Positions 1 through 16,898 of a stretch of 64,000 bases of DNA are shown in pieces. The translations under genes and the position numbers were made by a program. Source of the stretch: Dehalococcoidia bacterium (lineage in GTDB: Bacteria > Chloroflexota > Dehalococcoidia > Lucifugimonadales > VXLM01); the NCBI GenBank assembly GCA_034423035.1, contig DAOUJF010000004.1, positions 969-64,968 of the forward strand, read 5' to 3'. Below the pieces are notes generated by a model that saw only the letters and a program-made list of their open reading frames with translations, ran no database searches and had not been told where the DNA came from. Each line of letters opens with the position of its first letter. Position 1 is the first letter of the stretch.

Positions 1-3000
1 GCTCAGAAGCCCGACAGCGAGGTCTATCCCCGCGTGTGCGGGGGAACCGCTGATAATCGTGTCTGGGAACGCTGACGGCGGGGTCTATCCCCGCGTGTGC
101 GGGGGAACCTACACCACGGTTCGAGACAACCCGGGCAATCAGGGTCTATCCCCGCGTGTGCGGGGGAACCGTTCGAGCCGAACGGCCCAATGAACAGTCC
201 GAAGGTCTATCCCCGCGTGTGCGGGGGAACCCAGCGTGTAAATGCGCGGCTCGGTTCTGTATAAGGTCTATCCCCGCGTGTGCGGGGGAACCCGTTCCGA
301 TGTACTTGGTCTCTCCGCTAGGGCCGGTCTATCCCCGCGTGTGCGGGGGAACCGAGTACAACGATCTGCCAACGGCGGCTGCTCACGGTCTATCCCCGCG
401 TGTGCGGGGGAACCTTGGGTGTGCCGTTGTCAAATCCACATCCCGCAGGTCTATCCCCGCGTGTGCGGGGGAACCGCCGCAGAGTAGGTCAGCACGAGGG
501 ATGCGCCGGGTCTATCCCCGCGTGTGCGGGGGAACCCAGAACGGCTCGCTGTCGACGCCGCTTGGGACGGGTCTATCCCCGCGTGTGCGGGGGAACCTGC
601 TGCGGACGGCCCCCTGCTCGGTTCTGGTAGGGTCTATCCCCGCGTGTGCGGGGGAACCGTGACCGCGTCGCGCTTCGCTTTTCTTCGTTGAGGTCTATCC
701 CCGCGTGTGCGGGGGAACCTAGGCGGGCTGGGCGTGATGTCCGGCAGAATGAGGTCTATCCCCGCGTGTGCGGGGGAACCTGGTAATTCCAATACGCGGG
801 TCGGCGTTCGTGCGGTCTATCCCCGCGTGTGCGGGGGAACCTTCGGTATGTGGATTCTTGGGGCGGTCGTGTCGGGTCTATCCCCGCGTGTGCGGGGGAA
901 CCCCCTCGATGCTCTCGGAGAACGCCCATAGCAACGGTCTATCCCCGCGTGTGCGGGGGAACCACCTGACGCCAATGGTTGCCAGCGTCCGCCCTGGGTC
1001 TATCCCCGCGTGTGCGGGGGAACCGGCGCGTGGGAGGTGGCCTGCGTATGGCTATCGGGTCTATCCCCGCGTGTGCGGGGGAACCTCTCATCCATCGTGT
1101 AGCCCTTGGCGGCAAGCTGGTCTATCCCCGCGTGTGCGGGGGAACCGTCCGTAACGCCCATTTCAAACCCCTCGAAAGGGGTCTATCCCCGCGTGTGCGG
1201 GGGAACCGTGGATACAGTCTTCCGGAACATACCGGGAGCAGGTCTATCCCCGCGTGTGCGGGGGAACCCTGGATCGCTCGGATGCGACGCTCCGCAGCCG
1301 CGGTCTATCCCCGCGTGTGCGGGGGAACCTCATGTTTTCGCAAGTTGCCGCCCGATGATCCAGGTCTATCCCCGCGTGTGCGGGGGAACCGAGTAGCGGG
1401 ACATGGAACTCATGCGCGATGGGGGTCTATCCCCGCGTGTGCGGGGGAACCGAGTTCAAGGTTGCCGGGAGCGGGTAGGTCGACGGTCTATCCCCGCGTG
1501 TGCGGGGGAACCTGCACGGGGGAGTAGTACTGTCCCTCCGGAGGCGGTCTATCCCCGCGTGTGCGGGGGAACCTCCTCGACAGGATACCGGGGGGTATCA
1601 GTATGGGGTCTATCCCCGCGTGTGCGGGGGAACCTCATCAGCCCAGAGATAAATTGCCCCTGAAGATGGTCTATCCCCGCGTGTGCGGGGGAACCCGCTC
1701 AGCGAATCCCGCTGCCTCAACGATGGTGGGTCTATCCCCGCGTGTGCGGGGGAACCCGTTGTTGTGCCGTCCGCGCGTGGTGCTCTCGGGGTCTATCCCC
1801 GCGTGTGCGGGGGAACCGTGAACACTTCCAACGAGGGCATAGTGAACGTCGGTCTATCCCCGCGTGTGCGGGGGAACCCTCACGTTGATTGGGAGCGGCG
1901 GCGTTGTCGTGGGTCTATCCCCGCGTGTGCGGGGGAACCGCTCTTCTGCTGGGGGGCGCGTTCATAGCAATGGGTCTATCCCCGCGTGTGCGGGGGAACC
2001 TACAACAGGTACGTCCAGGCCGCAGCTGGGCGCGGTCTATCCCCGCGTGTGCGGGGGAACCCCTAGATATGAATACAGCGGCTTCTGCCCACAGGGTCTA
2101 TCCCCGCGTGTGCGGGGGAACCATGGATGAAGAATTCAGGACAGCGTGGAAGACGGGTCTATCCCCGCGTGTGCGGGGGAACCTGTCCGGGCGGCGCGGC
2201 CTCGCTGATCAGCCCGGGTCTATCCCCGCGTGTGCGGGGGAACCCCTCAGCAAGATATCATTCAGGTTCAGGAACCGGGTCTATCCCCGCGTGTGCGGGG
2301 GAACCTTTAAGGGACTGGAGGATGTTCTGGGGGCGACGGGTCTATCCCCGCGTGTGCGGGGGAACCCCAGGTGGCGGGTGTGACGTATACGACGTCATAG
2401 GTCTATCCCCGCGTGTGCGGGGGAACCACAAGACCCCTAAGGGGCTGACGGCTGAACAGAGGTCTATCCCCGCGTGTGCGGGGGAACCAAAAGGGTAAGG
2501 GCTGGTGGCACGTCTACCGACGGTCTATCCCCGCGTGTGCGGGGGAACCCAAAAAGGCTTGTTCGGCCTCATAATCCGCAACGGTCTATCCCCGCGTGTG
2601 CGGGGGAACCCCTCCGGTGCGTCCTCCTGGGAGCGGCGCTCCGGGTCTATCCCCGCGTGTGCGGGGGAACCTGAATGGGAACTTTCAAGGCGGGAAGCGC
2701 ATGGGGTCTATCCCCGCGTGTGCGGGGGAACCTTCGCATCCCAAGGGAGCATGGACACGTTCTAAGGTCTATCCCCGCGTGTGCGGGGGAACCTGAGAAC
2801 CGCTTCACTCACCCTGTATGGACACGGGTCTATCCCCGCGTGTGCGGGGGAACCACCGCCGTGCTCTGCAATAACTGTGTGCTCATCGGTCTATCCCCGC
2901 GTGTGCGGGGGAACCGTTCCCAAGCTATTAGTGCCACCAAAGACCTTAGGTCTATCCCCGCGTGTGCGGGGGAACCCCGTCAAGGCTAGGCGTATACGGC

Positions 3001-4135
3001 GAATAGTGGGGTCTATCCCCGCGTGTGCGGGGGAACCTCGAGCTTCCCCGACCAGTTCAACGAGGCCAACGGTCTATCCCCGCGTGTGCGGGGGAACCCG
3101 TCGTCGGCGTCGACGGCGCGTCCTACCATTGGGTCTATCCCCGCGTGTGCGGGGGAACCAGATGTATCGACGGTGCCATAGGTGCCGCTCACGGTCTATC
3201 CCCGCGTGTGCGGGGGAACCGCTCGGTGCGAGTGTCACAACGTACTCTTTCAGGGTCTATCCCCGCGTGTGCGGGGGAACCGGCTTCGGCGGCATCGTAG
3301 GGAATCCATCAAGCGGTCTATCCCCGCGTGTGCGGGGGAACCTTCCTCTGGTGACGGCCTTCACGTCCATGTAGAGGTCTATCCCCGCGTGTGCGGGGGA
3401 ACCACTTCCGGTCTTCGTCGGCGAACTGGATACCCTGGTCTATCCCCGCGTGTGCGGGGGAACCTTCTCAGACACGAGAAAGAGCGCGTCCGAGTACGGT
3501 CTATCCCCGCGTGTGCGGGGGAACCCAAATAGCACGCCATCCAGACGTACCTACCACAGGTCTATCCCCGCGTGTGCGGGGGAACCCGCCATATCAGTCC
3601 TCCTATGACCGAGTGTAAAGGTCTATCCCCGCGTGTGCGGGGGAACCGTAATAGCCCACGTCTCAGAAGCAGTCACGTACGGTCTATCCCCGCGTGTGCG
3701 GGGGAACCAAGCGGTCAGCCGTCTCGACCTCAAATTCAAGGGGTCTATCCCCGCGTGTGCGGGGGAACCAAGTCCCCTTGGTGGACGGTGTAGAGCGGGA
3801 TGGGTCTATCCCCGCGTGTGCGGGGGAACCATGTCGTACCGCACTCGGACGGCGTTCATACCGGGTCTATCCCCGCGTGTGCGGGGGAACCAGCGCGGCA
3901 GATAGACAACGCATCTCTAAACGGGGTCTATCCCCGCGTGTGCGGGGGAACCGCTACAACTATCCGCGCGGGTCTCTCGCGCGAGGGTCTATCCCCGCGT
4001 GTGCGGGGGAACCTGGATTGGTCGTGGTGAGGTTCCTGTTACTGAGGGTCTATCCCCGCGTGTGCGGGGGAACCAGCAAGCGGTTCACGAAGGGATACAG
4101 TGAGAGGGGTCTATCCCCGCGTGTGCGGGGGAACC
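1..4135 (-). CRISPR. Type I-E CRISPR array with 68 identical repeats in the window; the array continues past the left window edge
   Basis: The 28-nt core ggtctatccccgcgtgtgcgggggaacc on + (sense on -: GGTTCCCCCGCACACGCGGGGATAGACC, hairpin CCCCGC-ACAC-GCGGGG) starts at 21+61k for k=0..67. I checked it at 21, 82, 631, 1241, 1851, 2461, 3071, 3681 and 4108. The 33-nt inserts are unique. The cas2 gene and an AT-rich leader at the 4136 side set transcription on the - strand. Confidence 0.98.
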
Positions 4136-4186: not shown

Positions 4187-4486
4187 TTAGTTGTACTTTA
4201 CCAAGTACACGCCATCGGCATCCACGATGGACTTGGGTGCTTCGCCCAAGAGTCGTATCCGTTGCTCTCCGATAGCTGCGGGATCGCTCCACGTCATAAC
4301 TATCGCGCCTCGACCCGAGTCATAGTGCCACTTGCTCAGGACATCCCAGATTCTGTCTCGAATTCCGCTGGTCATTCGTGGGCTGGTGTATACACCGGGC
4401 GCTATTTCCAACATCACCGACGCCAGGAATCCGCGGTATCGCGCCTCGACGTTAACTGTGACGACTACTGTCACTATGCACCTCAC
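4187..4486 (-). CDS. cas2: CRISPR-associated endoribonuclease Cas2 (type I-E)
   Basis: 99-aa ORF directly leader-proximal, with a 4-nt overlap with cas1. Size and position fit the canonical I-E order. Confidence 0.9.
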   Translation of the reverse strand: MRCIVTVVVTVNVEARYRGFLASVMLEIAPGVYTSPRMTSGIRDRIWDVLSKWHYDSGRGAIVMTWSDPAAIGEQRIRLLGEAPKSIVDADGVYLVKYN

Positions 4487-5406
4487 AAACTCTCGTCCGA
4501 CGGCGCTGCCGCCACATCTTCTAGCGGAGCGACGTCCTGAAAGAGGACCTTGATGCGGTCTATCATCTTCGGAATCACGCGCTCGGCTCGCAGCATCTCT
4601 CCCGTCGTGCGCCGAGTGTGCCTTTCGATATTGATCGTCGGGTTTTCGATGACGGCTTTGGCCGACTTGAACGCGGCTGGAAGCAGAACCGTGTCGCGGA
4701 ACAGATCGGCGATGTCCAACGCGAATGCGTCGCCGCTGTGCTCGTGGATGAAGCCCAGTTGAGGAATAGCCCCCACCGACATCACGGCAATCACCGCTGC
4801 TGAAGTGACCGCGACAGACGCATGATTGATAGCCTGATTCGGAACATCGGCCGCGAGGGGATTGGCCCTGTCATAGCGGCGGCCCCTCCATGTGATTCCG
4901 TACCGCTGAGCCAGGTTTTGGTACGTTCGCCTCATGCGGGCACCCTCGATTCCTCGCAAGGCTTCGATGTTCTGATTCGGGAGCACTTCGCCGAGACGCA
5001 GAGTGTACATCTTGCGGGCCACGGTGATGCGGCTGCCTTCGGCGTCTCCCCATGCGCGCATCTGCCGACGGGCGATGTCGGACGTGTCGGGCATCAACGG
5101 CGGGGCCGTATAGCATCTGACACCGTCCTCGCCGACTGCAACGAGCGCGGTCCCGTGACGCGCCATCAAGCGCAGTGCGTCGTGACTGACGGTGGATCCG
5201 GGACCTAAAAGGATCATGGAAAGGGACTGAAACGGGATGCCGTATTCGCCAGAGTCGAGGGGGCTTCCCGAATCTGCATCGGCCTGACGCTCAAAGCGCA
5301 AAGTGCCGTCTCGGACGGTCAACGCCCCTCGACTCAGCCAGAGGAGCCCTTGCCGGTCGGCATGGGGAATCCTCGCAGTCTCAAGTCCCAGTCTTCCTCG
5401 CAGCAT
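4483..5406 (-). CDS. cas1: CRISPR-associated integrase Cas1 (type I-E)
   Basis: 307 aa with Cas1e-like sequence (…GFIHEHSGDAFALDIADLFR…). Sits between cas6e and cas2. Confidence 0.93.
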   Translation of the reverse strand: MLRGRLGLETARIPHADRQGLLWLSRGALTVRDGTLRFERQADADSGSPLDSGEYGIPFQSLSMILLGPGSTVSHDALRLMARHGTALVAVGEDGVRCYTAPPLMPDTSDIARRQMRAWGDAEGSRITVARKMYTLRLGEVLPNQNIEALRGIEGARMRRTYQNLAQRYGITWRGRRYDRANPLAADVPNQAINHASVAVTSAAVIAVMSVGAIPQLGFIHEHSGDAFALDIADLFRDTVLLPAAFKSAKAVIENPTINIERHTRRTTGEMLRAERVIPKMIDRIKVLFQDVAPLEDVAAAPSDESL

Positions 5407-5480
5407 GTTGGTTCATCCCCCGGTTGTGATATTCGGATGTTAAGGTACGTCAAAGAAGGATGGTCAGCGGCGGAAGATTG

Positions 5481-6221
5481 TCAGCCCGTCGTCCCTGACG
5501 CGGGACGCAGCAGCAGCATCCCGTATCCGTAGGCGCGATGGCGTCCGATCCCGTCGGCTACCAGGTCGGCGAACATTGCAGGGTCGGTCACTTCGATGGT
5601 TCCTTGCATCACTGCGTCGGGCCCTTCCGGAGCGTGCTTGTGGAGTTTGCGGACGACACGCACTCTCTGGAAGGACCGTAGCCGCGCCTCCTCCAGACAC
5701 GCGCCGCGTTGGGCAAGCCTGTCGGACAGCCAGTCCACGTAGACCTCCTCCCGGCCGCGGGGCATTTCCCCCTTCAGGTGGCGCTCTGCCTCGGCCTGGA
5801 AAGCGTCTCGTTCTTTGCCCGGTCTATCGGAACCTCGTCCGCATCTCACAACCGGGCGGATCAGGGTCTCGAAGCCTAGCCGCTGTCCTGTCCGCCATGA
5901 GTTCGGCATTGTCTTGCTGTCCATGGTCGAAGAGGGAAGTATCTTGGACTGCAATGGATCGGCGAAGACGGCATTTGCTTCGCGAAGTTCTTCGGCTGTC
6001 GAGCCAGAGTATGCGTAGAAGGTCCCGCGAACGCGTTTCCGGTCTCGCGGAATGATGACGCGAAAAGGCTTGGGCGCAAGGTCGCGTCCGAAGCTCTCGG
6101 TGAGGAGGCAGTGCATGGCGAACCCGGGATCGAAGGCGTTTCGGCTGATCATGCCTCTCGATCCCGCCCAGCGGTAAAAGGAGCGCGCGTCGATGTCCGC
6201 CCGTATCATGTTGGTGGTCAT
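5481..6221 (-). CDS. cas6e: Cas6e/CasE crRNA endoribonuclease
   Basis: 246 aa with the C-terminal GIGRHRAYGYGMLLL motif typical of CasE. 4-nt overlap with cas5. Confidence 0.9.
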   Translation of the reverse strand: MTTNMIRADIDARSFYRWAGSRGMISRNAFDPGFAMHCLLTESFGRDLAPKPFRVIIPRDRKRVRGTFYAYSGSTAEELREANAVFADPLQSKILPSSTMDSKTMPNSWRTGQRLGFETLIRPVVRCGRGSDRPGKERDAFQAEAERHLKGEMPRGREEVYVDWLSDRLAQRGACLEEARLRSFQRVRVVRKLHKHAPEGPDAVMQGTIEVTDPAMFADLVADGIGRHRAYGYGMLLLRPASGTTG

Positions 6222-6973
6222 GGCTGTTCCTCTTTGGCGTTGAATCGGTATGTTCCTTCATAGACCCGCCGCCCACCGCCGTGAAGCCCGGAGACCCAGT
6301 TGCGCTCGTCGGTCAGCATGAAGTCCCTGTCTATGTGAACACAGTCCACGCCTTCGCCGTCCGACCAGAGCAAGCGGACAGAGCGAACACGGTCGTCACC
6401 CTCTCGCTCCTCGCGTTCCACAGGGAGATTCAACAGCGCGTCGAGTGTGTTGCTCGCATTGCAGTCGATTCCGACGAATAGGGGCGCGGACGGCAAACAG
6501 GGCTTTCGCCCGATGAAGAGTGGACGGGCAGGTTGTTGCAAAGCGTTGGCCAGCTCGTCGAGCGTGGGCGACTCATCTTCCGGCTCCAGGCGCAGGGCGA
6601 CGGTGACGCGCATGTCGGCAAAGTAGTCACGGTAGCGCAGGTGCGGAGCGTCGTACGTGTTCGCGCCCCCGGCGCGGCCCTCGGGCCGGCCCCGGGTGGT
6701 CCACCCCTTGTCGTCTTTGTTCAACTGCGCCGTCTGGAAGTCGGTCAGCCGCACGCCGCCGGCCGGTTCGCGGTCGATGCGGGCGGCGAACACGAGGCGT
6801 TCTTGCAGGCTCTGATGCCGCTCCCGTTCGACGCGCCGCCAGCCGAGCGCGTTGGCAAACACGCCGGTCAGCATGGACGCCGCTGGAAACCAACGGATGA
6901 CGCCGTAGTTGTCGATCGTCTCGCCGCCGAAGGACATCAGCGGCGATTCGAGGTTTAGTATGAGATGTCGCAT
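6218..6973 (-). CDS. cas5: Cas5e/CasD Cascade subunit
   Basis: N-terminus MRHLILNLESPLMSFGG is typical of Cas5e. Start moved to the Met at 6973, which lies just downstream of the cas7 stop (6979-6981); the tracked ORF extends to 7018. Confidence 0.88.
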   Translation of the reverse strand: MRHLILNLESPLMSFGGETIDNYGVIRWFPAASMLTGVFANALGWRRVERERHQSLQERLVFAARIDREPAGGVRLTDFQTAQLNKDDKGWTTRGRPEGRAGGANTYDAPHLRYRDYFADMRVTVALRLEPEDESPTLDELANALQQPARPLFIGRKPCLPSAPLFVGIDCNASNTLDALLNLPVEREEREGDDRVRSVRLLWSDGEGVDCVHIDRDFMLTDERNWVSGLHGGGRRVYEGTYRFNAKEEQP

Positions 6974-6978
6974 GGAGT

Positions 6979-8160
6979 TCACGCCGCTTTCGCATTGCGG
7001 ACCGCGTCCGCGGCCCACGACGCAAGGTCATCGAGATTGCGGCGTTCCGCGTTGGGGATGTCGCAGTCATCAAGGGACACTACCCCGCGAGCTTCCCGAG
7101 GGCCGTACGCATCGTCTAGCTTGGACAGGTGACAGGAAATGGCGTCCGTTGCGTCGGCTATCTGCGCCTTGACGGGAGCGCGGAAAGCGTTGGCGAGGCT
7201 GCGAGGCTGACGCGACCCGGCCTCGATCAGCATGAGGTTGGCGTACTCGTAGGGCGCGGTCGAGCCGAGCTTCGCGCCGGGCGACACCGTGGCGATCAGA
7301 TGGATGAGATGCTCGACCACCTTCGCGGCAAGCTCGCGGTCCGCGCCCTGCGAGTCGGTGGCCTCGCACCCCGTGAGGTTGGAGACGAGGCCGGGCACGT
7401 CGACCACGACGTAGCCGTAGAATATGCCCGCGGTGAGCTCCACGTCGCCGATGTGGTCGGCGCCGGGGTCTTCGTCGGCGGGCTGGAGGTCGTCCACGAC
7501 GGAGAAGTAGTCGCTCTCCGACTCTTCCTGATGCACGGTGAAGGCGTGGGCGACGTGGACTGCGGCTTCGATGTTGGCGGCGGGGTCGGAAGTCACCATC
7601 CTGCCGAACAGTGCGCCGATGAGTCCGCCCGGCAAGGACGCGCTCTGCCTGAACGCACGGAAGTTGTCTCGATGGTCGTTGGCGCGCCGGTCGCTGAAGA
7701 GCTGCGTGGCAGCCTCCACCGCGGCATCTAAATCTCCCGCGTGCGCTTCACATATGGCCTTTGCGTGGGCTTGGAGATATTCGACTTCGGGTAGTCCGAG
7801 CAGAAGGGGCTGCCGTCCGCTTCTGGTCGTCCCACTGGAACCGTACACGCCCTTTTGGAACTCTTCCTCGACTCCGTTGAGGAACTCATCGGAGTATTGG
7901 CCGGTTTCACGGAGCGGCTGCATGATTCGTCGCGTGACGATTTCCCGCGAGCGGACGGCGTCTTGGGAACCCTGAATGTTCGCCACCGAGAACTCGTCGT
8001 CCGCCATGCGCCAATGTCGCTTGAGGCACTGCGACGAGACGCGCGTCCGTGTCGCCCCGCCGAACGGCATCCGCTTGGCGAGGCCGCTGTCGTCGCGGTT
8101 CAACAATGCCGCCGGGTAGGAGTGCAGCGTGTGGATTTGTAGAAATCGTGGTGTGGTCAT
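6979..8160 (-). CDS. cas7: Cas7e/CasC (Cse4) Cascade backbone subunit
   Basis: 393 aa with N-terminus FLQIHTLHSYPAALLNRDDSGLAKR…SSQCLKRHWR, characteristic of CasC. Confidence 0.93.
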   Translation of the reverse strand: MTTPRFLQIHTLHSYPAALLNRDDSGLAKRMPFGGATRTRVSSQCLKRHWRMADDEFSVANIQGSQDAVRSREIVTRRIMQPLRETGQYSDEFLNGVEEEFQKGVYGSSGTTRSGRQPLLLGLPEVEYLQAHAKAICEAHAGDLDAAVEAATQLFSDRRANDHRDNFRAFRQSASLPGGLIGALFGRMVTSDPAANIEAAVHVAHAFTVHQEESESDYFSVVDDLQPADEDPGADHIGDVELTAGIFYGYVVVDVPGLVSNLTGCEATDSQGADRELAAKVVEHLIHLIATVSPGAKLGSTAPYEYANLMLIEAGSRQPRSLANAFRAPVKAQIADATDAISCHLSKLDDAYGPREARGVVSLDDCDIPNAERRNLDDLASWAADAVRNAKAA

Positions 8161-8184: not shown

Positions 8185-8802
8185 CTATTGGTTTTCGGTG
8201 TCGTCAGGCTGCGAACGACGCTGAGCCCGGAAGTATTCACTGGCGATGCGACGGCGCGCGATTTCAGCTGATTTTTCAAAGTCCCCTTCATCCCGAATCA
8301 AGCTTGCCATTTCTTTCCAGTCGAAAGACACGTTAGAGGCGGCCAGCATCCGGAACGTCCTGGCCAGCAGCGAGCGAAACATTGGCCCTCGCGCAGTCAA
8401 GAGACGGTTGAGGCGAATCTCGCTGTAGAAGCCTTTCTCCCTAGTATCAGCGTCCCCAAGGTACAGCGCTCGCCCCACCGGCGTATAAGGGTCGTGAGCG
8501 TAACGCGTGTTCCCATCCCCTCGACTTGTCGGCGTCATCAAGGCAATTCCATGCAAGATCAGACCCCACTTCGGTTCAACCTTGCGGCCCCTGAACCGAT
8601 CTTCATGCTGGACCATTATTTTCCAGAAGACGGGCACATCGTAAGCGTCCGGGTCCATTCGACGGAGCTCGGCGAGGTCACCGGGCCTATACAGTTTTGG
8701 CGATGCTAGCTTTTGCGCAACATCGACAGCGACTTCACCCCAACTCTTAAGTTGTTCCTGCTGTGTTAATGCGCCGTTCCCCGGTGGATAAGTTGTCATC
8801 AT
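8185..8802 (-). CDS. cse2: Cse2/CasB (Cas11e) small Cascade subunit
   Basis: 205-aa helical protein between cas8e and cas7. Overlaps the cas8e 3' end by 56 nt, so the start is uncertain. Confidence 0.8.
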   Translation of the reverse strand: MMTTYPPGNGALTQQEQLKSWGEVAVDVAQKLASPKLYRPGDLAELRRMDPDAYDVPVFWKIMVQHEDRFRGRKVEPKWGLILHGIALMTPTSRGDGNTRYAHDPYTPVGRALYLGDADTREKGFYSEIRLNRLLTARGPMFRSLLARTFRMLAASNVSFDWKEMASLIRDEGDFEKSAEIARRRIASEYFRAQRRSQPDDTENQ

Positions 8803-10396
8803 CTACTCCTTTTTCGGTGAATAAGGAAGGCAGTCCATGGTTCCCGCGTATGCGGCCCTCGAACAGTCCTTCGGCACGGACGCGGGCTTTGTAACGCTCG
8901 ATCTCAGGACACGGGAGGGAGTCCATGGCGTCGGCCAGAACCAAGCGCGCACGGTTCACCACGTCCCTCTGCCAGTTATTGCGGATGCGCTGTCGTTCAT
9001 CCCTGTCATGGGCCTTGAACTCGGCCTGAAGGTGTTCGAAGAATCGGACATCCACGATCTCGTCCAGCTGATTCAGCCAGGGACGTGCGAGATTTCGATG
9101 CTCTCGGCTGACTTTGTCGGTCTCGCCTCTGCCCAAGAATATCTGAATAGCGTGGCTGAGTATTCGTTGAACCTTATCAACATCTTCTATGCGGTCATTG
9201 GCAACCTCACCCAAGGCTCTTAGTGCGCCAGGTCTCCTCATGGCATCCGGGTTTAGCGGGATCACACGCTCGGCATATCCTTCCGTCATCCCGTGCTTCC
9301 AAGTGTTGCGTTTCAAACTCCGTGCTACCAACAGGGTGTGAGAGTGCTCCTCCGTATACGTAGACTCTAGCAATATTGGGTGGTTCCACGAGGCCAGAAA
9401 ATGGGATATCCGCTTATACATGAATCCTGTTGGCCCAACGTTCAAAGCCATTCCCTGGTCATCAACGGGCGTCCATGGGTCGCCCGTTCTGCCTTGTTGT
9501 GTCTTGTTGATCCTCGGCACCTTAGAGTTGGCTAGTACAGCCAGCAGTTGACCATTGTCCACACGCAGTCGGACACGGCGACATATCTCGATGTAAAAGG
9601 GATCAACGTGACGGAGCAACTCGCCTTCATCACCATGCCATGAACAGAGCCAGAGGAGTGCAAGTCCGTTGTCATTGAACTGTCTAGTGTTTAAGACCTC
9701 CCCGCGCCGTTCCAACAGTACTGATATGTCCCGCTGGACATGGAGACCCCATCTAAGGACGCCTTCTTGCTCGCAGGGGGCAAGCGAGAACGCTGGACGT
9801 GCGGAATACGCGCTTCGGATTCTGGAGACTGAATAGTTACCCTTGCCATCCTGAGCGGCCCCTGTCTGGAGACTGATCAAGGTGAATATCCAGTCGTCGA
9901 CTTGGACGGACGATGCGACAGCTGACTTCACGTCGTGGTTCTTGGACGTAACGAGCATGTCTAGTTCGTCAGGAGTATATACAGGCTGTTTTTTGCCGTT
10001 CTCGGGTTCGTATCTCCCCTTCTTGTTTTCGTACAGGTACTCTGACAGCTTATCGGCCGAGAGCGCCGGCGGCTGCATGAAGGCGGGCAAGGTGATGTCG
10101 TCAACCACGAGCTGCCAGGGTTCGTCGTCGGGGTAGGCGGGCGTGAGGCCGCGAATGATCTCAGCCCACTCCGTCGGATCGGCCGGAGGGGCGTTCACGC
10201 CCGCCCTGTGCATCGCCATGACACCGAGTTGTACGAGGAAGGCGTGCCATGTGTGCCGATGGTGCGGCCGGAGGGCGGGGAAGGCGTCCACCTCGTCCGC
10301 CATGAGCGCGGCGTAGACTTCCGGCAGGGAGATTTCTACGCGGGAGCCGTCGGACTTGTCCATCCTAATCAAACGCTCGGTCAGGATGTTGTACAT
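8747..10396 (-). CDS. cas8e: Cas8e/Cse1 (CasA) large Cascade subunit
   Basis: 549 aa with a Cse1-like N-terminus (MYNILTERLIR…FPALRPHHRHTWHAFLVQL). GGAGAGG Shine-Dalgarno site 7-8 nt upstream of the ATG. Confidence 0.9.
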   Translation of the reverse strand: MYNILTERLIRMDKSDGSRVEISLPEVYAALMADEVDAFPALRPHHRHTWHAFLVQLGVMAMHRAGVNAPPADPTEWAEIIRGLTPAYPDDEPWQLVVDDITLPAFMQPPALSADKLSEYLYENKKGRYEPENGKKQPVYTPDELDMLVTSKNHDVKSAVASSVQVDDWIFTLISLQTGAAQDGKGNYSVSRIRSAYSARPAFSLAPCEQEGVLRWGLHVQRDISVLLERRGEVLNTRQFNDNGLALLWLCSWHGDEGELLRHVDPFYIEICRRVRLRVDNGQLLAVLANSKVPRINKTQQGRTGDPWTPVDDQGMALNVGPTGFMYKRISHFLASWNHPILLESTYTEEHSHTLLVARSLKRNTWKHGMTEGYAERVIPLNPDAMRRPGALRALGEVANDRIEDVDKVQRILSHAIQIFLGRGETDKVSREHRNLARPWLNQLDEIVDVRFFEHLQAEFKAHDRDERQRIRNNWQRDVVNRARLVLADAMDSLPCPEIERYKARVRAEGLFEGRIRGNHGLPSLFTEKGVDDDNLSTGERRINTAGTT

Positions 10397-10447
10397 AGGT
10401 CAGCCTCTCCTAATCGCTCATTCGTTTCAAGGAACGGACGTGCTATT

Positions 10448-10627
10448 CTATGGGTATTCTTTCGATCTGTCAAACTTTTGTTCCGCTTTGGGGGCGAGGA
10501 TCTCGATCGTGGACCGGATAGTCCTGCACTCATAGCTGAGTTTGTCGTATCTATCTTTGGCTTTGGCGAGTTGTGCTTCTTTGCGCTGCAAGATATTCTC
10601 AAGTTGATGGGGCGGTGCTTCTGCCAT
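10448..10627 (-). CDS. Untracked 59-codon ORF, possible first gene of the Cascade operon: MAEAPPHQLENILQRKEAQLAKAKDRYDKLSYECRTIRSTIEILAPKAEQKFDRSKEYP
   Basis: Hand-translated from the - strand; it falls below the 60-aa ORF-track cutoff. GGGAG lies 5-6 nt upstream of the ATG. It is ~33 nt downstream of the predicted TSS of a near-consensus promoter and 51 nt upstream of cas8e. Against coding: A/T-ending codons (6 of 7 Lys codons are AAA), unlike the flanking cas genes. Confidence 0.4.
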   Translation of the reverse strand: MAEAPPHQLENILQRKEAQLAKAKDRYDKLSYECRTIRSTIEILAPKAEQKFDRSKEYP

Positions 10628-10666
10628 ATCATCTCCCTAATCTGATATAGTACATTTAGTTCAAGC

Positions 10667-10695
10667 ATTATCTATAATTCTCCGCCCAGAGTCAA
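10667..10695 (-). promoter_or_regulatory. Near-consensus sigma70 promoter for the small ORF and cas8e operon (Pcas)
   Basis: On the - strand: TTGACT (10690-10695), 17-nt spacer, GATAAT (10667-10672). A perfect TATAAT on the + strand (10673-10678) lies directly next to it, giving back-to-back -10 boxes. Confidence 0.6.
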
Positions 10696-10698
10696 GAG

Positions 10699-10775
10699 AC
10701 GTCTCTCGCCCACGCGAGAATAGACCCGCCTGCACCAACCGAACGCAGGTTCCCCCGCACACGCGGGGTCATCGT
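10699..10775 (+). ncRNA. Degenerate mini-CRISPR / crRNA-like unit: psiR1 (10699-10726), 21-nt psi-spacer (10727-10747), psiR2 (10748-10775)
   Basis: psiR2: the first 21 nt equal the sense repeat GGTTCCCCCGCACACGCGGGG and the last 7 nt are unrelated. psiR1: 20/28 identical, the last 7 nt ATAGACC are intact, and the hairpin is kept as TCTCGC-CCAC-GCGAGA through two compensatory pair changes. The unit is oriented opposite to the main array and the cas operon. Confidence 0.6.
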
Positions 10776-10792: not shown

Positions 10793-13498
10793 TTAGGCGC
10801 GGCGCAGTCCCATACGGTCGTACACGAAGCTCTTGTCGCCGACCGTGAACGTGAAGCCGCCGTCGACAAGCTTGGGCTCTGCGGTAACGTCGCGATTGAT
10901 AGTAACACCCGCCAACCAGCGACAGGGAATGAGTATGGTGTCGATGAGGCCCCGATCGAAGGGACTGATGTGGGGTGGACTCATAAGCACATCAAAGGGC
11001 TCGTCACTTAAACGTGTGCGGATGTTTTCTTCCGAAGAAGGAAAGCGTAGTTTTCGGTTTTCTCTTCGCGGATAGAACGCCTTGTCGCGTGGTATGACGC
11101 TGTAGCGAGCCTCCTGACCGTCAGCGTCACGTCCCCCCACCACATTTTGGCCATGAACTACCCACTCTTGCCCTAGTTTCTCGATTTCTTCCAGCGCGTC
11201 GGGATGGGTCGCGCGCTCGACGAGTTTGCGATTCATTTCTGGGATGCGCCATTCGGGATGTTCGCCGATCAGCCGCCGCGTCGCCTCCAGTATCCGAAGG
11301 TCCTCGTACACGTATCCCTTTGGTCCGAGGCCGTTGGCGTGTTTGCCGTCGGTTAGAAGCGGCTCAAGGTCGTTGTCGGGAGGCGTGAGGACGATACAGG
11401 TGGGGTTGGCGTAGTCGCAGGGCCGGTCGGTGTTCTTGTGTCGGTGGAGGCGTCCGATGCGCTGGAGGAGAACGTCTACGGGGCACAGGTCGGTTATGAG
11501 CAGGTCGGCGTCGATGTCGAGGGACTGTTCGAGCGTCTGGGTGCCGACGACGACGCGGCCTCCTGACTCCCGGCCCTTGCCGAGCATCTGCTCAACGCGC
11601 TTATCGAGCATCGCGCGGTCGCACGCGGCGAACCGCCCGTGATGCAGCGTCGTCTTCCTCCTGACGTCGAACAGTAGTCCCCTATCACCCTCTCCGGCCA
11701 GGTCTTCCAACGCCTGCTGAGTCTTCACGGCGTGGTCGACGGTGTTGCGGACGACCAGCACCTTCGCACCCGTGCGTGCGGCAATTAGCGCGCGTTGTGC
11801 GGTGTCGGCGAAGTCGCGCATGGTCGGGCTCGCCTTGATAGACACGCTCTTTTTCTGGTCGTTCACGCCCGCAGGCACGAGATTTTCGCCCGCGCCGCTT
11901 GGTGTGCTTACGGCGGGGTATCGAGCGCGAATGGCCTCATCGAGAGGGGGACCGCCGCCTTCCGTCCTCTCACCATGATGCAGCCAGCGATGGCGAGCGG
12001 TAGAACCGAGTGTTGCTGACATGAGCAGAGCGTAGCCGCCTGCGCCGACGTGGGCGTCAAGCACCGCTTCGAGAATGACGCTCATGTAGGTGTCGGATGC
12101 GTGCACCTCGTCGATGACGAGCAGATTGCGCGCGAGGCAGGCGGCGCGCATGTGGGCGTTCTTGACCTGGAGCGCGCCCATCATCGCCTGATCGACCGTG
12201 CCGACGGCGATCTGCGCGGCAAGGTAGCGCTTAGGATTCCTTGATGCCCATGGTCTGTCGTCGTCGTGGTGACCGGACGCTGCATCATTGTAGTTGGGCA
12301 TCTCGACACGAGCGGCGTCCACGCCCGGTTCATAGCCGGGCACGGCGAGCACGACCGGGGGAGGACCTTGTGGGAAGAGGTTGCGAGTGAAGCGCTTGAC
12401 ACGTTCGTGAATCTGGACAGCGGCGGAGCGGGTCGGCAGGGCGAAATAGAGGCCGTCCACCAACCCTGCCTCGTACAAGCGGGCGAACCGCCACAGCGCG
12501 GCTTCCGTCTTGCCGGAGCCCGTCTCCGACTCGATGATAACCAGGCGCTGGTCAAGTGGAGCTTGGCGAACGGTCTCCTGAATCGCGTTGGGCGAACCGT
12601 CTATGTTGAACAGATCGACGAAATCGGGCACGCCGTTGAAGGTGCATCTTTGGTCGGACAGGTCGAGGCCAATTCCCGAGATGGCTCGTGACGCACTTGC
12701 GCGGGCGATGTCCATATAGTCGTCACGCGGCTGATCACAGTACTCGAAGTAACGTTCGTCGGAACCGACCCAATCGGCCCAGTTGCACAGCCCAAGGAAC
12801 ATGTGCTGGAAGGCGGGAGCGGAAGGAAGAGGCGATCCTCCCGGAGCGAACGCGGCAGGGAACCAGCAACGCAGCAGCCCCCCGATGTGCCGAACGCAGT
12901 CCTCGGGGTTCAGATCGCCGAACTTCCACCAGATGCGAGGGTTCTCGTTCAGGTCGCCATCCAACTGCAAGGGGCTGCCGTGATGCGAGAGCGTAGCCAC
13001 CAGCATCGCGCAGACCGTCTCGCCAGCGCGGTCGTCCCATGACTCTGTGGCGTCGAACCACCACCCCAGCGCGTCGAAGAACCAATCCGCGGTCATTTCA
13101 TCTTTCTGTGTCAGAACCGGAGTCAAGGCCGAGGTGTGGCCGACGCGACGAAACTCCACAGGCTGCCGCCCACCCGGCAGGTCCTCGGACCTCCATATCT
13201 GTGTCTGAAACCCCATGTTTACCTTGCCGATGTCGTGGAGGGCCGCGAACACGGAGAGTCGGGCTATGAGCGACTCATCGAGGTCGTCACGGCCGCCGGT
13301 TGCCGCAAGCCGTTTTCTGATGGTCGGTTGGCGCATCAGCGCCTGGAAGCAGGCCCCGACGTCGGCGAGATGGTACTCAAGCCGGTGGATGCGTCCGGGA
13401 TTTTCTCGGTCCGACTTGGCCCAGTGGCGTCGGGTATAGGACAGGCGTGGCTTTCCCTCCGTCATCTCGGTATTCCTCTCTTGTCTCATGCGGAGCAT
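10793..13498 (-). CDS. cas3: Cas3 HD-nuclease/helicase (type I-E)
   Basis: 901 aa. N-terminal HD domain (…HLADV…LHDIGKVN…), helicase motifs (ETGSGKT, VIDEVH). An alternative start at 13465 (MTEGKP…) has an upstream GAGAGGA. Confidence 0.95.
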   Translation of the reverse strand: MLRMRQERNTEMTEGKPRLSYTRRHWAKSDRENPGRIHRLEYHLADVGACFQALMRQPTIRKRLAATGGRDDLDESLIARLSVFAALHDIGKVNMGFQTQIWRSEDLPGGRQPVEFRRVGHTSALTPVLTQKDEMTADWFFDALGWWFDATESWDDRAGETVCAMLVATLSHHGSPLQLDGDLNENPRIWWKFGDLNPEDCVRHIGGLLRCWFPAAFAPGGSPLPSAPAFQHMFLGLCNWADWVGSDERYFEYCDQPRDDYMDIARASASRAISGIGLDLSDQRCTFNGVPDFVDLFNIDGSPNAIQETVRQAPLDQRLVIIESETGSGKTEAALWRFARLYEAGLVDGLYFALPTRSAAVQIHERVKRFTRNLFPQGPPPVVLAVPGYEPGVDAARVEMPNYNDAASGHHDDDRPWASRNPKRYLAAQIAVGTVDQAMMGALQVKNAHMRAACLARNLLVIDEVHASDTYMSVILEAVLDAHVGAGGYALLMSATLGSTARHRWLHHGERTEGGGPPLDEAIRARYPAVSTPSGAGENLVPAGVNDQKKSVSIKASPTMRDFADTAQRALIAARTGAKVLVVRNTVDHAVKTQQALEDLAGEGDRGLLFDVRRKTTLHHGRFAACDRAMLDKRVEQMLGKGRESGGRVVVGTQTLEQSLDIDADLLITDLCPVDVLLQRIGRLHRHKNTDRPCDYANPTCIVLTPPDNDLEPLLTDGKHANGLGPKGYVYEDLRILEATRRLIGEHPEWRIPEMNRKLVERATHPDALEEIEKLGQEWVVHGQNVVGGRDADGQEARYSVIPRDKAFYPRRENRKLRFPSSEENIRTRLSDEPFDVLMSPPHISPFDRGLIDTILIPCRWLAGVTINRDVTAEPKLVDGGFTFTVGDKSFVYDRMGLRRA

Positions 13499-13530: not shown

Positions 13531-14109
<579 letters not shown>

Positions 14110-15430: not shown

Positions 15431-16606
15431 TCAGCCGCTAGGAGCGACATAATCTGCCCATGCCTGCATCAGGGGACGTCGTTCGGTGTACCAGTCCGTC
15501 CTAGCATAGGCCCGTTCGGTTGTGTTCCCTACTTGATGTGCTAGAGCTGCTTCCGACGCTTCCCACGAAGCACTTGTCTTTTCCACTGCCCACGTCTTGA
15601 ACGCGCTACGGAAGCCGTGAGCGGTCGTCTTATCCACTAGGCCCACGTCTCTAAGCACCTTCAAGAGCGCCATGTCCGAAAGCATGCCGCCACGCTTGCG
15701 CGGGGACGGGAAGATTAGGCCCTGTCCCTCGTTTAGACCCCACGCTTCTCTGAGAACCTCAACGGCCTGAGCGCTCAGGGGTATCCGATGCGGCCTTCCC
15801 GCCTTCATCTTGTCTCCGGAGATCTCCCAAACTCGCCGGTCAAGGTCGATTTCTTCCCAGGTCGCGGCCCGCGCTTCCGCGTTTCGGGTAGCGGTCAAAA
15901 CCATGAAGCGGAAGCTCAAGCGAGTAGCGTCGGAGGCGTTCGACCGTTTGACCGTCTCAAGCGCGTCAGCTACGTTGGAGTAGGGAAGTGCTCTAAAGTG
16001 TTGCTTTATCGCGGGTTGGGGAATGAGCGCAAAGTCCAGCGCATCCCCACATGGAGTGTTTTCGATGTACTCATTCCCAACACACCATCTGAAGATAGCT
16101 CGCATCTTTTGAAGCACGCGACGACCCTGTTCAGGTGTGCGTGTCCAGATAGGCCTTAGACACTGGATAACGTCGCGTCGAGTAATTTGGTCGACGGGCA
16201 CACGCCCAAGCGATGGGAAACAGTGCTTTTCGACGGCCTGCAACCACTGCCTAGCATGCTTCTCCGAGCGCCAACGCGGTCGCAAGGCTGCATGAACGGA
16301 GATAGCGGCCTCTCTGAATGTCGGAATGGTCGGAGCCTTTCGCTCCTGCTCGGTTGCTGCCTCGCGTTCTCTTGGGTCGATGCCGTCTGTAATCAAGGCC
16401 CGATTTTCTGCGCATCGTTGCCTTGCCTGAGCAGGTGACACATCGGGGAATCGTCCGAGTCCCAAATCCCGTCGCCGTCCATTAACCGTGATGCGGTGCA
16501 ACCAATTCTTGCTTTTGGTCTTGGTGACTACGAGGTAGAGGCCCGCCCCGTCCGCATATCGCCCCGGCTCCCGGAGCGACCGGATTCGTTTAACTGATAG
16601 CTTCAT
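15431..16606 (-). CDS. int: Tyrosine-type site-specific integrase (P4-like, N-terminal arm-binding domain)
   Basis: 391 aa. N-terminus …YADGAGLYLVVTKTKSKNWLHRITVNGRRRDLGLG…; C-terminal catalytic region …HGFRSAFKTWA…ALAHQVGN…AYAR. Adjacent to the 3' end of tRNA-Trp. Confidence 0.92.
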   Translation of the reverse strand: MKLSVKRIRSLREPGRYADGAGLYLVVTKTKSKNWLHRITVNGRRRDLGLGRFPDVSPAQARQRCAENRALITDGIDPREREAATEQERKAPTIPTFREAAISVHAALRPRWRSEKHARQWLQAVEKHCFPSLGRVPVDQITRRDVIQCLRPIWTRTPEQGRRVLQKMRAIFRWCVGNEYIENTPCGDALDFALIPQPAIKQHFRALPYSNVADALETVKRSNASDATRLSFRFMVLTATRNAEARAATWEEIDLDRRVWEISGDKMKAGRPHRIPLSAQAVEVLREAWGLNEGQGLIFPSPRKRGGMLSDMALLKVLRDVGLVDKTTAHGFRSAFKTWAVEKTSASWEASEAALAHQVGNTTERAYARTDWYTERRPLMQAWADYVAPSG

Positions 16607-16821: not shown

Positions 16822-16898
16822 TGGCAGGGGTGGCAGGATTCGAACCCGCGGCCTACGGTTTTGGAGACCGTTGCTCTACCAGCCTGAGCTACACCCCT
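16822..16898 (-). tRNA. tRNA-Trp (anticodon CCA), 3' CCA encoded
   Basis: The reverse complement folds as a cloverleaf: acceptor AGGGGTG/CACCCCT, D arm GCTC…GAGC, anticodon arm ACGGT-CTCCAAA-ACCGT, T arm GCGGG-TTCGAAT-CCTGC, then discriminator G and CCA. Confidence 0.9.

Follow-up and report, generated by a model that had tools for sequence, protein, structure and literature searches.

The 64-kb stretch of contig DAOUJF010000004.1 analyzed here (the window) carries a type I-E CRISPR locus with a complete cas operon, in which all cas genes are intact and lie on the minus strand. The question it raises is what a pair of degenerate repeat units is doing in the 396-nucleotide (nt) gap between cas3 and cas8e, antisense to the cas genes. 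We consider it probable (roughly 70%) that this mini-array is a gene for a CRISPR RNA (crRNA)-like regulatory RNA of the CreR/CreA kind, which would guide Cascade as a repressor onto a divergent promoter, P1, ahead of a small open reading frame (ORF) and cas8e. The reading is carried by the anatomy of the mini-array, the conservation of its position and orientation, covariation within its hairpins and between its guide and target, the protospacer-adjacent motif (PAM) beside that target, and a mismatch signature at guide positions 6 and 12, all of which can be seen directly.

Two repeat-derived units, psiR1 and psiR2, flank one spacer-like insert, psiS, beside the cas operon and apart from the main array (Table 1), and the same layout is found in the relatives that bear mini-arrays. 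The main array, which runs past the window start, is the origin of the repeat sequence and of competing crRNAs. Compared with the sense repeat of that array (GGTTCCCCCGCACACGCGGGGATAGACC), psiR2 keeps the first 21 nt, the 3' hairpin handle, exactly and has diverged in its last 7 nt, where 6 of 7 differ. psiR1 agrees exactly in its last 7 nt (ATAGACC), and its hairpin is intact, with a compensated stem, TCTCGC/GCGAGA. On direct reading, the preliminary description of the window had the positions, the strand, and these features of both units right to the base. On the plus strand, just one further match to the repeat with nine or fewer mismatches occurs in the 64 kb; this scarcity, together with the exact 21-nt match, excludes a chance origin. 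An immune array would also look different: psiR1 and psiR2 carry 8 and 6 mismatches to the repeat overall, the insert is 21 nt as compared with 33 nt, and the element is on the opposite strand. Transcription on the plus strand would run toward, and antisense to, the end of cas3.

In type I-E systems, Cas6e cuts at the 3' base of each hairpin. Both hairpins are present in the predicted fold of the plus-strand RNA, and processing of this type would give a mature crRNA-like RNA of 49 nt, consisting of an 8-nt handle, a 20-nt guide, and a 21-nt hairpin. In this register, which is fixed by comparative data, the first base of the insert completes the handle (ATAGACC plus one base), leaving a guide of 20 nt, as compared with 32 nt in the main array. 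The lengths of 21 and 33 nt given in the preliminary description for the insert and the array spacers stand; what needed refinement was the register. In 64 of the 67 main-array "spacers", the first base is C, G, or T.

Related loci are labeled L001-L014. Scans of genome and metagenome contigs based on Cas8e yielded four loci only (L001, L002, L003, and L004, which is an identical copy of L003), L005-L008 were collected via homologues of the small ORF, and L009-L014 via closer Cas8e homologues, using a protein database and contig look-ups. Their Cas8e proteins are 51-63% identical to that of the window, and the nearest named records are Chloroflexota metagenome-assembled genomes; the related loci are apparently Chloroflexota. 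Pairs of antisense repeat-like units follow shortly after the cas3 stop codon in L001, L002, L005-L011, L013, and L014. Counted as distinct related I-E loci, nine of eleven have an antisense mini-array at this place. In L003, the cas3-cas8e gap is just 48 nt and holds no mini-array, and none was found in L012, in which cas3 is split. Since place and strand are conserved across loci, the mini-array is not array debris.

Within every mini-array, the alignment identifies the psiR1 handle (ATAGACC or ATAGTCC) and the psiR2 hairpin as the conserved parts. Orthologues of psiR1 with compensatory stem changes are present in L005, L006, L008, L001, and L002. Stem pair 6-21 is U-A in four psiR1 units and pair 8-19 is U-A in three units; pair 7-20 is A-U in psiR1 of L008 and U-A in psiR2 of L005, and pair 11-16 is G-C in psiR2 of L006. 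Across 14 units, 98.8% of cells pair, with double-sided changes at four of the six pairs, and the resulting covariation score was reached by 0 of 500 shuffles, with slid controls also far off. These paired substitutions and the shuffle test indicate that the RNA hairpins are under selection. The preliminary description had argued for a processed crRNA-like RNA under selection rather than array decay, and had proposed an alignment of cas3-cas8e gaps from relatives with a covariation check; the conserved handle, the conserved psiR2 hairpin, and the covariation bear that argument out. The guide itself is identical to that of L006 at 20/20 positions, and L005 differs at guide position 6 alone. The 5' tail of psiR1 and the 3' tail of psiR2 have diverged, with hairpins and handle intact.

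A further regularity concerns the insert ends. The last 3 nt before psiR2 are nearly all GCA in the window, L002, L005-L008, L010, L013, and L014, despite differing guides, and in RNAs of the window and L008 types the insert end pairs with the guide start (CCUGC...GCAGG). The common GCA end suggests either shared descent of these mini-arrays or an unrecognized structural role.

Guide targets were sought in 8-20 kb fetched per relative and scored as informative positions out of 15 within guide positions 1-17. In L001, L005, L006, L008-L011, L013, and L014, the best non-self match lies within ~110 nt of the mini-array, on the cas-sense strand and beside an AAT, AAC, or AAG PAM, with 13-15 of 15 informative matches (14-15 in eight of the nine). 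For eight loci the distance is 50-110 nt, and the match falls at the -10 box or start site of a divergent promoter. The first lead was L001, whose 22-nt insert matches 77 nt away on the cas-sense strand, directly after a TATAAT box and with PAM AAT; its mismatches fall only at guide positions 3, 6, and 12, counting the first insert base as handle, and pairing covers 1-21. Pairing covers 1-17 in L005 (PAM AAT, mismatches at 9 and 12), L006 (AAT, 9), and L008 (AAG, 9), 1-17 of 32 in L010 (AAC; 6, 8, and 12), and 1-18 of 32 in L013 (AAT; 6 and 12) and L014 (AAC; 12). It extends over 1-24 in L011 (AAT; 6, 8, 12, and also 19) and is partial beyond 17 in L009 (AAC; 3, 6, 12, and 16). With the window excluded, positions 6 or 12 hold 12 of the 20 mismatches within 1-17 (P ~4e-7, an upper bound on significance because the loci are related). 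At both positions, type I-E Cascade is known to turn the base out of the duplex. The pattern fixes the register with an 8-nt handle and shows that Cascade-style pairing is what selection sees.

Guide and target also change together. There are two guide families, one in the window, L005, and L006 and the other in L008, and each fits a site of its own that is placed alike in front of homologous ORFs; another guide with its own matching site in L008 amounts to guide-target covariation. In the window, L001, L005, and L006, the PAM is the end of a TATAAT or GATAAT -10 box, and the P1 element reads TTGACT-17-TATAAT in L005 and L006. The L013 target covers the -35 box common to two divergent promoters.

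Other features of these pairs are recorded here as observations. In L013 (7743-7796), a palindromic -35 box, TTGCAA (7767-7772), serves two divergent promoter-like elements, one toward the small ORF and cas8e and the other toward the mini-array; Cascade bound there could silence both, including synthesis of the guide itself. Besides the flipped positions, most guide/target pairs have a single mismatch halfway along a 5-nt segment, at position 3 in the window, L001, and L009 (always guide C versus protospacer T), at position 8 in L010 and L011, and at position 9 in the window, L005, L006, and L008. The window target is mismatched at all six multiples of three up to 18. Finally, L008 has a second guide match (7066-7085, 13/15) situated 11-30 nt upstream of the cas3 start, with ACG in place of an AAN PAM, which hints at dual control of cas3 at that locus.

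In the window, no PAM-flanked target of the psi-spacer had been found for the preliminary description. A candidate does exist: the aligned orthologue of the L005 and L006 targets (14/15) lies 33 nt from psiR1, at the -10 box and start site of P1, with an AAT PAM and interrupted pairing. Contiguous-seed scans of the window in the 21-nt and 20-nt registers returned chance-level matches alone; interrupted pairing is missed by a search of that kind, and the site was found once the L001 target showed where to look. The candidate has 11 of 15 informative guide matches, with mismatches at 3, 6, 9, 12, 13, 15, and 18-20. Because 22 of ~128,000 window positions score at least 11/15, a blind scan would not single this site out, but at a site pre-specified by alignment the score is significant. 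The -35 box of P1 is 3 nt from psiR1, and the predicted start site falls inside the protospacer. BLAST of the whole array against phage genomes gave no matches, hence no PAM could be derived from protospacers, and an exact-pattern scan of viral contigs for handle plus guide gave no match.

From these features, we propose the following course of events. The mini-array would be transcribed on the plus strand, from the cas8e side toward the cas3 end, and Cas6e would cut both hairpins to release the 49-nt RNA, with handle AUAGACCC, the 20-nt guide, and the repeat hairpin. This RNA would load a shortened Cascade, which would read the AAT PAM inside the P1 -10 box and pair with the 17-20 nt directly downstream, across the transcription start. 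Such short and interrupted pairing would leave Cas3 unlicensed, and the complex would act as a repressor. P1 would drive the 59-codon small ORF and, with no terminator before cas8e, would probably add to Cascade transcription by read-through. Repression would thus follow the amount of free Cascade, as a negative feedback, and would lift when crRNAs titrate Cascade or anti-CRISPRs block it.

The CreA/CreR-type reading suggested in the preliminary description is supported by the guide-target covariation and by the PAM-flanked candidate target at P1. Its shortened guide also holds up, but the 12-nt shortening cannot be credited with full disarming. In Escherichia coli, Cas6e processes crRNAs whose spacers lack 12 nt, the Cascade built on them contains fewer Cas7 subunits, and interference on perfect targets is nearly lost but still weakly present (Kuznedelov et al. 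2016, PMC5159557). Those short-spacer complexes were engineered and their targets fully matched, and shortening alone was no safe-lock. Since such crRNAs still interfere weakly, and since relatives with 33-nt inserts pair over just 17-18 nt, the chromosome is probably spared by partial pairing and not by guide length alone. In the 21-nt insert, the part-matched 33-nt design seems to recur minus its unpaired tail, by exactly two 6-nt steps.

Table 1. Features of the type I-E locus and its mini-array, in window coordinates.
Feature	Position	Strand	Remarks
psiR1	10699-10726	+	ACGTCTCTCGCCCACGCGAGAATAGACC
psiS, spacer-like insert	10727-10747	+	CGCCTGCACCAACCGAACGCA
Guide	10728-10747	+	GCCTGCACCAACCGAACGCA; as written for target matching, GCCTGCACCAACCGAAC
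psiR2	10748-10775	+	GGTTCCCCCGCACACGCGGGGTCATCGT
Predicted mature crRNA-like RNA	10720-10768	+	extent assumes type I-E processing
Promoter P1	10695-10667	-	TTGACT (10695-10690), 17 nt, GATAAT (10672-10667)
PAM	10667-10669	-	AAT, last three bases of the -10 hexamer
Candidate protospacer	10666..10647	-	GCTTGAACTAAATGTACTAT
59-codon ORF	10448-10627	-	first ORF downstream of P1, just upstream of cas8e
Promoter-like element P2	10473..10445	-	TTGACA-17-TAGAAT, ~50 nt upstream of cas8e
cas3	10793-13498	-	type I-E family match; stop codon 18 nt beyond psiR2
cas8e	8747-10396	-	type I-E family match; first Cascade gene
cse2	8185-8802	-	type I-E family match
cas7	6979-8160	-	type I-E family match
cas5	6218-7018	-	type I-E family match
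cas6e	5481-6221	-	type I-E family match; presumed processing enzyme for the mini-array transcript
cas1	4483-5406	-	type I-E family match
cas2	4187-4486	-	type I-E family match
Main CRISPR array	21-4135	sense repeat on -	68 identical repeats, 67 spacers, every spacer 33 nt

What P1 would control is the next matter to consider. Some 25 nt past the predicted P1 start, the sequence GGGAG (10637-10633) offers the 59-codon ORF a strong ribosome-binding site, and cas8e starts 51 nt past the ORF, with no terminator predicted between them. Its homologues number four among 5.8 billion proteins, all of them between cas3 and cas8e, and one is frameshifted. Searches of Pfam, PADLOC, NCBIfam, and PDB sequences returned no match for the product, and AlphaFold predicts a single long hydrophilic helix (residues 6-57) with a predicted local distance difference test score (pLDDT) of 87. 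Codon usage is atypical, GC content is 49% as compared with 59% for the window, and AAA/AGA codons are scattered through the ORF. In a codon-position test, the variable half of the ORF showed no third-position excess and the other half was conserved at the DNA level.

The region between P1 and the Cascade genes holds a second, near-consensus promoter-like element, P2. Its -35 box is invariant across the window and L005-L008, and its -10 box is one base off in two loci (TAAAAT and TAGTAT). We also observed that the 3' half of the ORF and the cas8e leader (10397-10560, minus strand), within which P2 lies, show 82-91% DNA identity between the window and L005-L008, as compared with 62-68% for the cas genes, and that the conserved runs include third codon positions. 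P2 accounts for just part of this conservation. No convincing structure emerged when a consensus fold was computed from P1 to cas8e, and its covariation term was unfavorable.

Across the relatives, the slot controlled by the targeted promoter is filled by small ORFs of three unrelated families: the coiled-coil family of the window, a 62-amino-acid family, and a Cys-rich family. ORFs of the latter two families are unannotated and likewise lie between mini-array and cas8e. The 62-amino-acid family fills the slot in L001, L010, L013, and L014 and overlaps the cas8e start codon in L010, L013, and L014; the Cys-rich family, with paired CxxC motifs, fills it in L002, L009, and L011. A doubtful extension is that the Cascade-guided switch in this lineage could be a general sensor of working Cascade, controlling interchangeable small proteins of the three families (the Cys-rich one being zinc-ribbon-like) that would be released upon Cascade depletion or inhibition. 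If this were true, the small proteins would act in type I-E either as CreT-like guards made of protein or as anti-anti-CRISPR effectors, and the recurrent mid-segment mismatch at position 3, 8, or 9 would be tuned, setting the threshold for release.

Several points weigh against a regulatory mini-array at work on P1. No convincing mini-array promoter is conserved in L005 and L006, and a TATAAT at 10673-10678 on the plus strand of the window is not conserved in relatives. L002 and L007, with inserts of 33-34 nt, have no clear target in the DNA fetched. The relatives share ancestry, and the statistics overcount independent events. P2 is strong, conserved, directly before cas8e, and unmatched by the guide, and the control of Cascade by the mini-array may consequently be small in this locus type. 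The window match is the weakest of the set: its mismatches at non-flipped positions (3, 9, 13, and 15) include seed position 3, and similar scores arise ~20 times by chance in the window. Moreover, 6 of 20 target positions differ from L006, about the same as in the surrounding non-conserved sequence, while the guide is unchanged. We conclude that the circuit is ancestral and well supported in the lineage. With the target drifted and the guide intact, repression in the window genome is probably weakened and possibly lost.

Drift of this sort also invites a rather unlikely explanation, namely that the mini-array was functional in an ancestor, that a target mutation broke the circuit in the window genome, and that the element persists for lack of time. 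A window score of 11/15, against 14-15 in eight of the nine relatives with targets, fits this account, as does a target that has diverged from L006 about as much as its flanks; L007, with a split cas3, has also lost its guide match. Against this account, the guide remains identical to that of L006, the hairpins and handle are intact beside diverged tails, no cas gene is broken, and the 68 repeats of the array are perfect. In addition, the mismatches at positions 3 and 9 each recur in otherwise well-matched relatives. Less probable is that the main site lies outside the 64-kb window, or that the cas3 promoter is targeted in addition. The search covered 64 kb of the genome, a published survey leaves distant targets possible (10.1101/2023.03.03.530964), and the second L008 match sits near the cas3 start. 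Even so, that second site lacks an AAN PAM, no better-than-chance site in the window carries a plausible PAM, and the local site is the clear best match in nine loci. It is highly improbable that there is no RNA guide at all and that the inverted repeats are a terminator or stabilizing hairpin of the minus-strand cas3 transcript, or debris of an inverted array. The closeness of psiR2 to the cas3 stop and its G+C-rich hairpin complement would suit a terminator, but no T-run follows and no terminator is predicted, and the conservation of ATAGACC, the guide-target covariation, the AAN PAM, and the position-6/12 pattern would all go unexplained.

The main rival to the CreR reading is a toxin guard of the CreTA type, in which the RNA would be a CreA antitoxin that silences a harmful small ORF or RNA, and loss of Cascade or its block by an anti-CRISPR would kill or arrest the cell. 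We regard this as unlikely, although several points speak for it. It is specifically a small ORF, equipped with a strong ribosome-binding site, that P1 precedes, while cas8e is served by the untargeted P2; three unrelated small-ORF families share the slot; the 59-codon family is confined to the cas3-cas8e context; and the ORF in the window is atypical in codon usage and GC content. Toxin-antitoxin genes have been reported to be enriched in the stretch between mini-arrays and cas genes, type I-E included. Against the toxin reading, the ORF product resembles no known toxin and is predicted to form a hydrophilic single helix. CreT toxins reportedly have tandem rare codons right after the start codon; of the CreT signature, the 59-codon ORF has the strong ribosome-binding site and lacks those codons. 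The overlap of the 62-amino-acid ORF with the cas8e start suggests an operon partner rather than a toxin, and one homologue of the 59-codon ORF is frameshifted. In the window, ORF and promoter have also survived undamaged behind a degraded target; a lethal toxin would not have permitted this.

A mini-array guiding Cascade to repress a promoter in its own locus has published precedents. In Salmonella enterica, type I-E CreR represses PcasA via a partial match with an AAG PAM, and this has been validated experimentally (10.1101/2023.03.10.532045). The window resembles that system in having a degenerate mini-CRISPR in the cas3-cas8e (casA) gap, with the 5' handle retained in psiR1 and the 3' hairpin in psiR2, and a guide with a candidate partial match to a PAM-flanked promoter site upstream of the Cascade operon; cleavage-free repression by Cascade would be a further likeness. 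However, the Salmonella psiS is longer, with 15 consecutive matches, as compared with a 20-nt guide and weak, interrupted pairing in the window, where the PAM is AAT inside a -10 box rather than AAG. The window also differs in having a conserved small ORF between target and cas8e and a separate untargeted promoter. Its lineage is apparently Chloroflexota rather than Enterobacteria, and its circuit is a prediction from sequence.

For ~19% of bacterial I-E loci, a mini-array has been reported that is transcribed against the direction of cas3 and directed at the cas8 promoter (10.1101/2023.03.03.530964), and cargo or toxin-antitoxin genes have been reported to lie sometimes between mini-array and cas genes, type I-E included. 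Like the I-E mini-arrays of Shmakov et al., the one described here lies between cas3 and cas8, runs opposite to cas3, has a predicted target with a canonical PAM in the cas8 promoter region, shows mismatch tolerance at every sixth position, and is patchy among relatives, with "empty" loci such as L003. In contrast to that survey, where the upstream repeat is described as better conserved, psiR1 of the window has on the whole degenerated further than psiR2. For CreTA, the types given as validated are I-B and I-F, and the literature consulted on this class holds no validated type I-E case. The likeness to CreTA is that a mini-array RNA would send Cascade to the promoter of an adjacent divergent small gene in the cas locus, with cargo that is diverse between related loci. 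CreT toxins of such modules are reported to sequester tRNA (PMC8501985), whereas the cargo of the window looks like a small protein gene without a tRNA-sequestering signature.

As CreR-type mini-arrays of type I-E have already been published, the window provides a well-supported new example and no new mechanism. Its novelty lies in the lineage, a truncated guide, a PAM that forms part of a -10 box, the small-ORF families, and a natural graded series of guides and targets. This series comes from a phylum far from the enterobacterial examples, and its guides are by nature either shortened (20 nt) or matched only in part (17-18 of 32 nt); its mismatch pattern is an evolutionary readout of Cascade pairing geometry. 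Pairs graded at 15, 14, 13, and 11 of 15 can be used to ask how much pairing is needed to repress without cutting. The analysis also flags three small unannotated gene families whose expression is seemingly tied to Cascade status.

Some minor observations concern other parts of these loci. A viral contig (L015, IMGVR_UViG_3300049728_000129) has at 5385-5412 a single exact copy of the lineage's type I-E repeat, with no second repeat visible nearby and a ribosome-binding site and ATG downstream. The 32 nt downstream of this repeat have no target in any fetched locus, and the contig is matched by 0 of 504 array spacers; the repeat may be a solitary-repeat RNA anti-CRISPR.

Divergent from cas3, a gene at 13567-14109 on the plus strand encodes a 180-amino-acid DnaQ-like DEDD exonuclease, and an exonuclease of this type is found upstream of cas3 in the window and in 10 of 10 relatives with an annotated upstream flank (L005-L014). 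Fusions of Cas2 with DEDDh domains are known for prespacer trimming, and the DnaQ-like protein may be a stand-alone prespacer-trimming enzyme. An Rfam scan of the window returned two tRNAs only. Just beyond the exonuclease and cas3 genes, a tyrosine integrase gene (15431-16606, minus strand) adjoins tRNA-Trp (16822-16898, minus strand), and an integrase occupies the same position in L005, L010, L013, and L014. The type I-E locus as a whole may be carried by a tRNA-integrated island, the other end of which lies beyond the window, given the integrase beside tRNA-Trp and the recurrence of its position in relatives.

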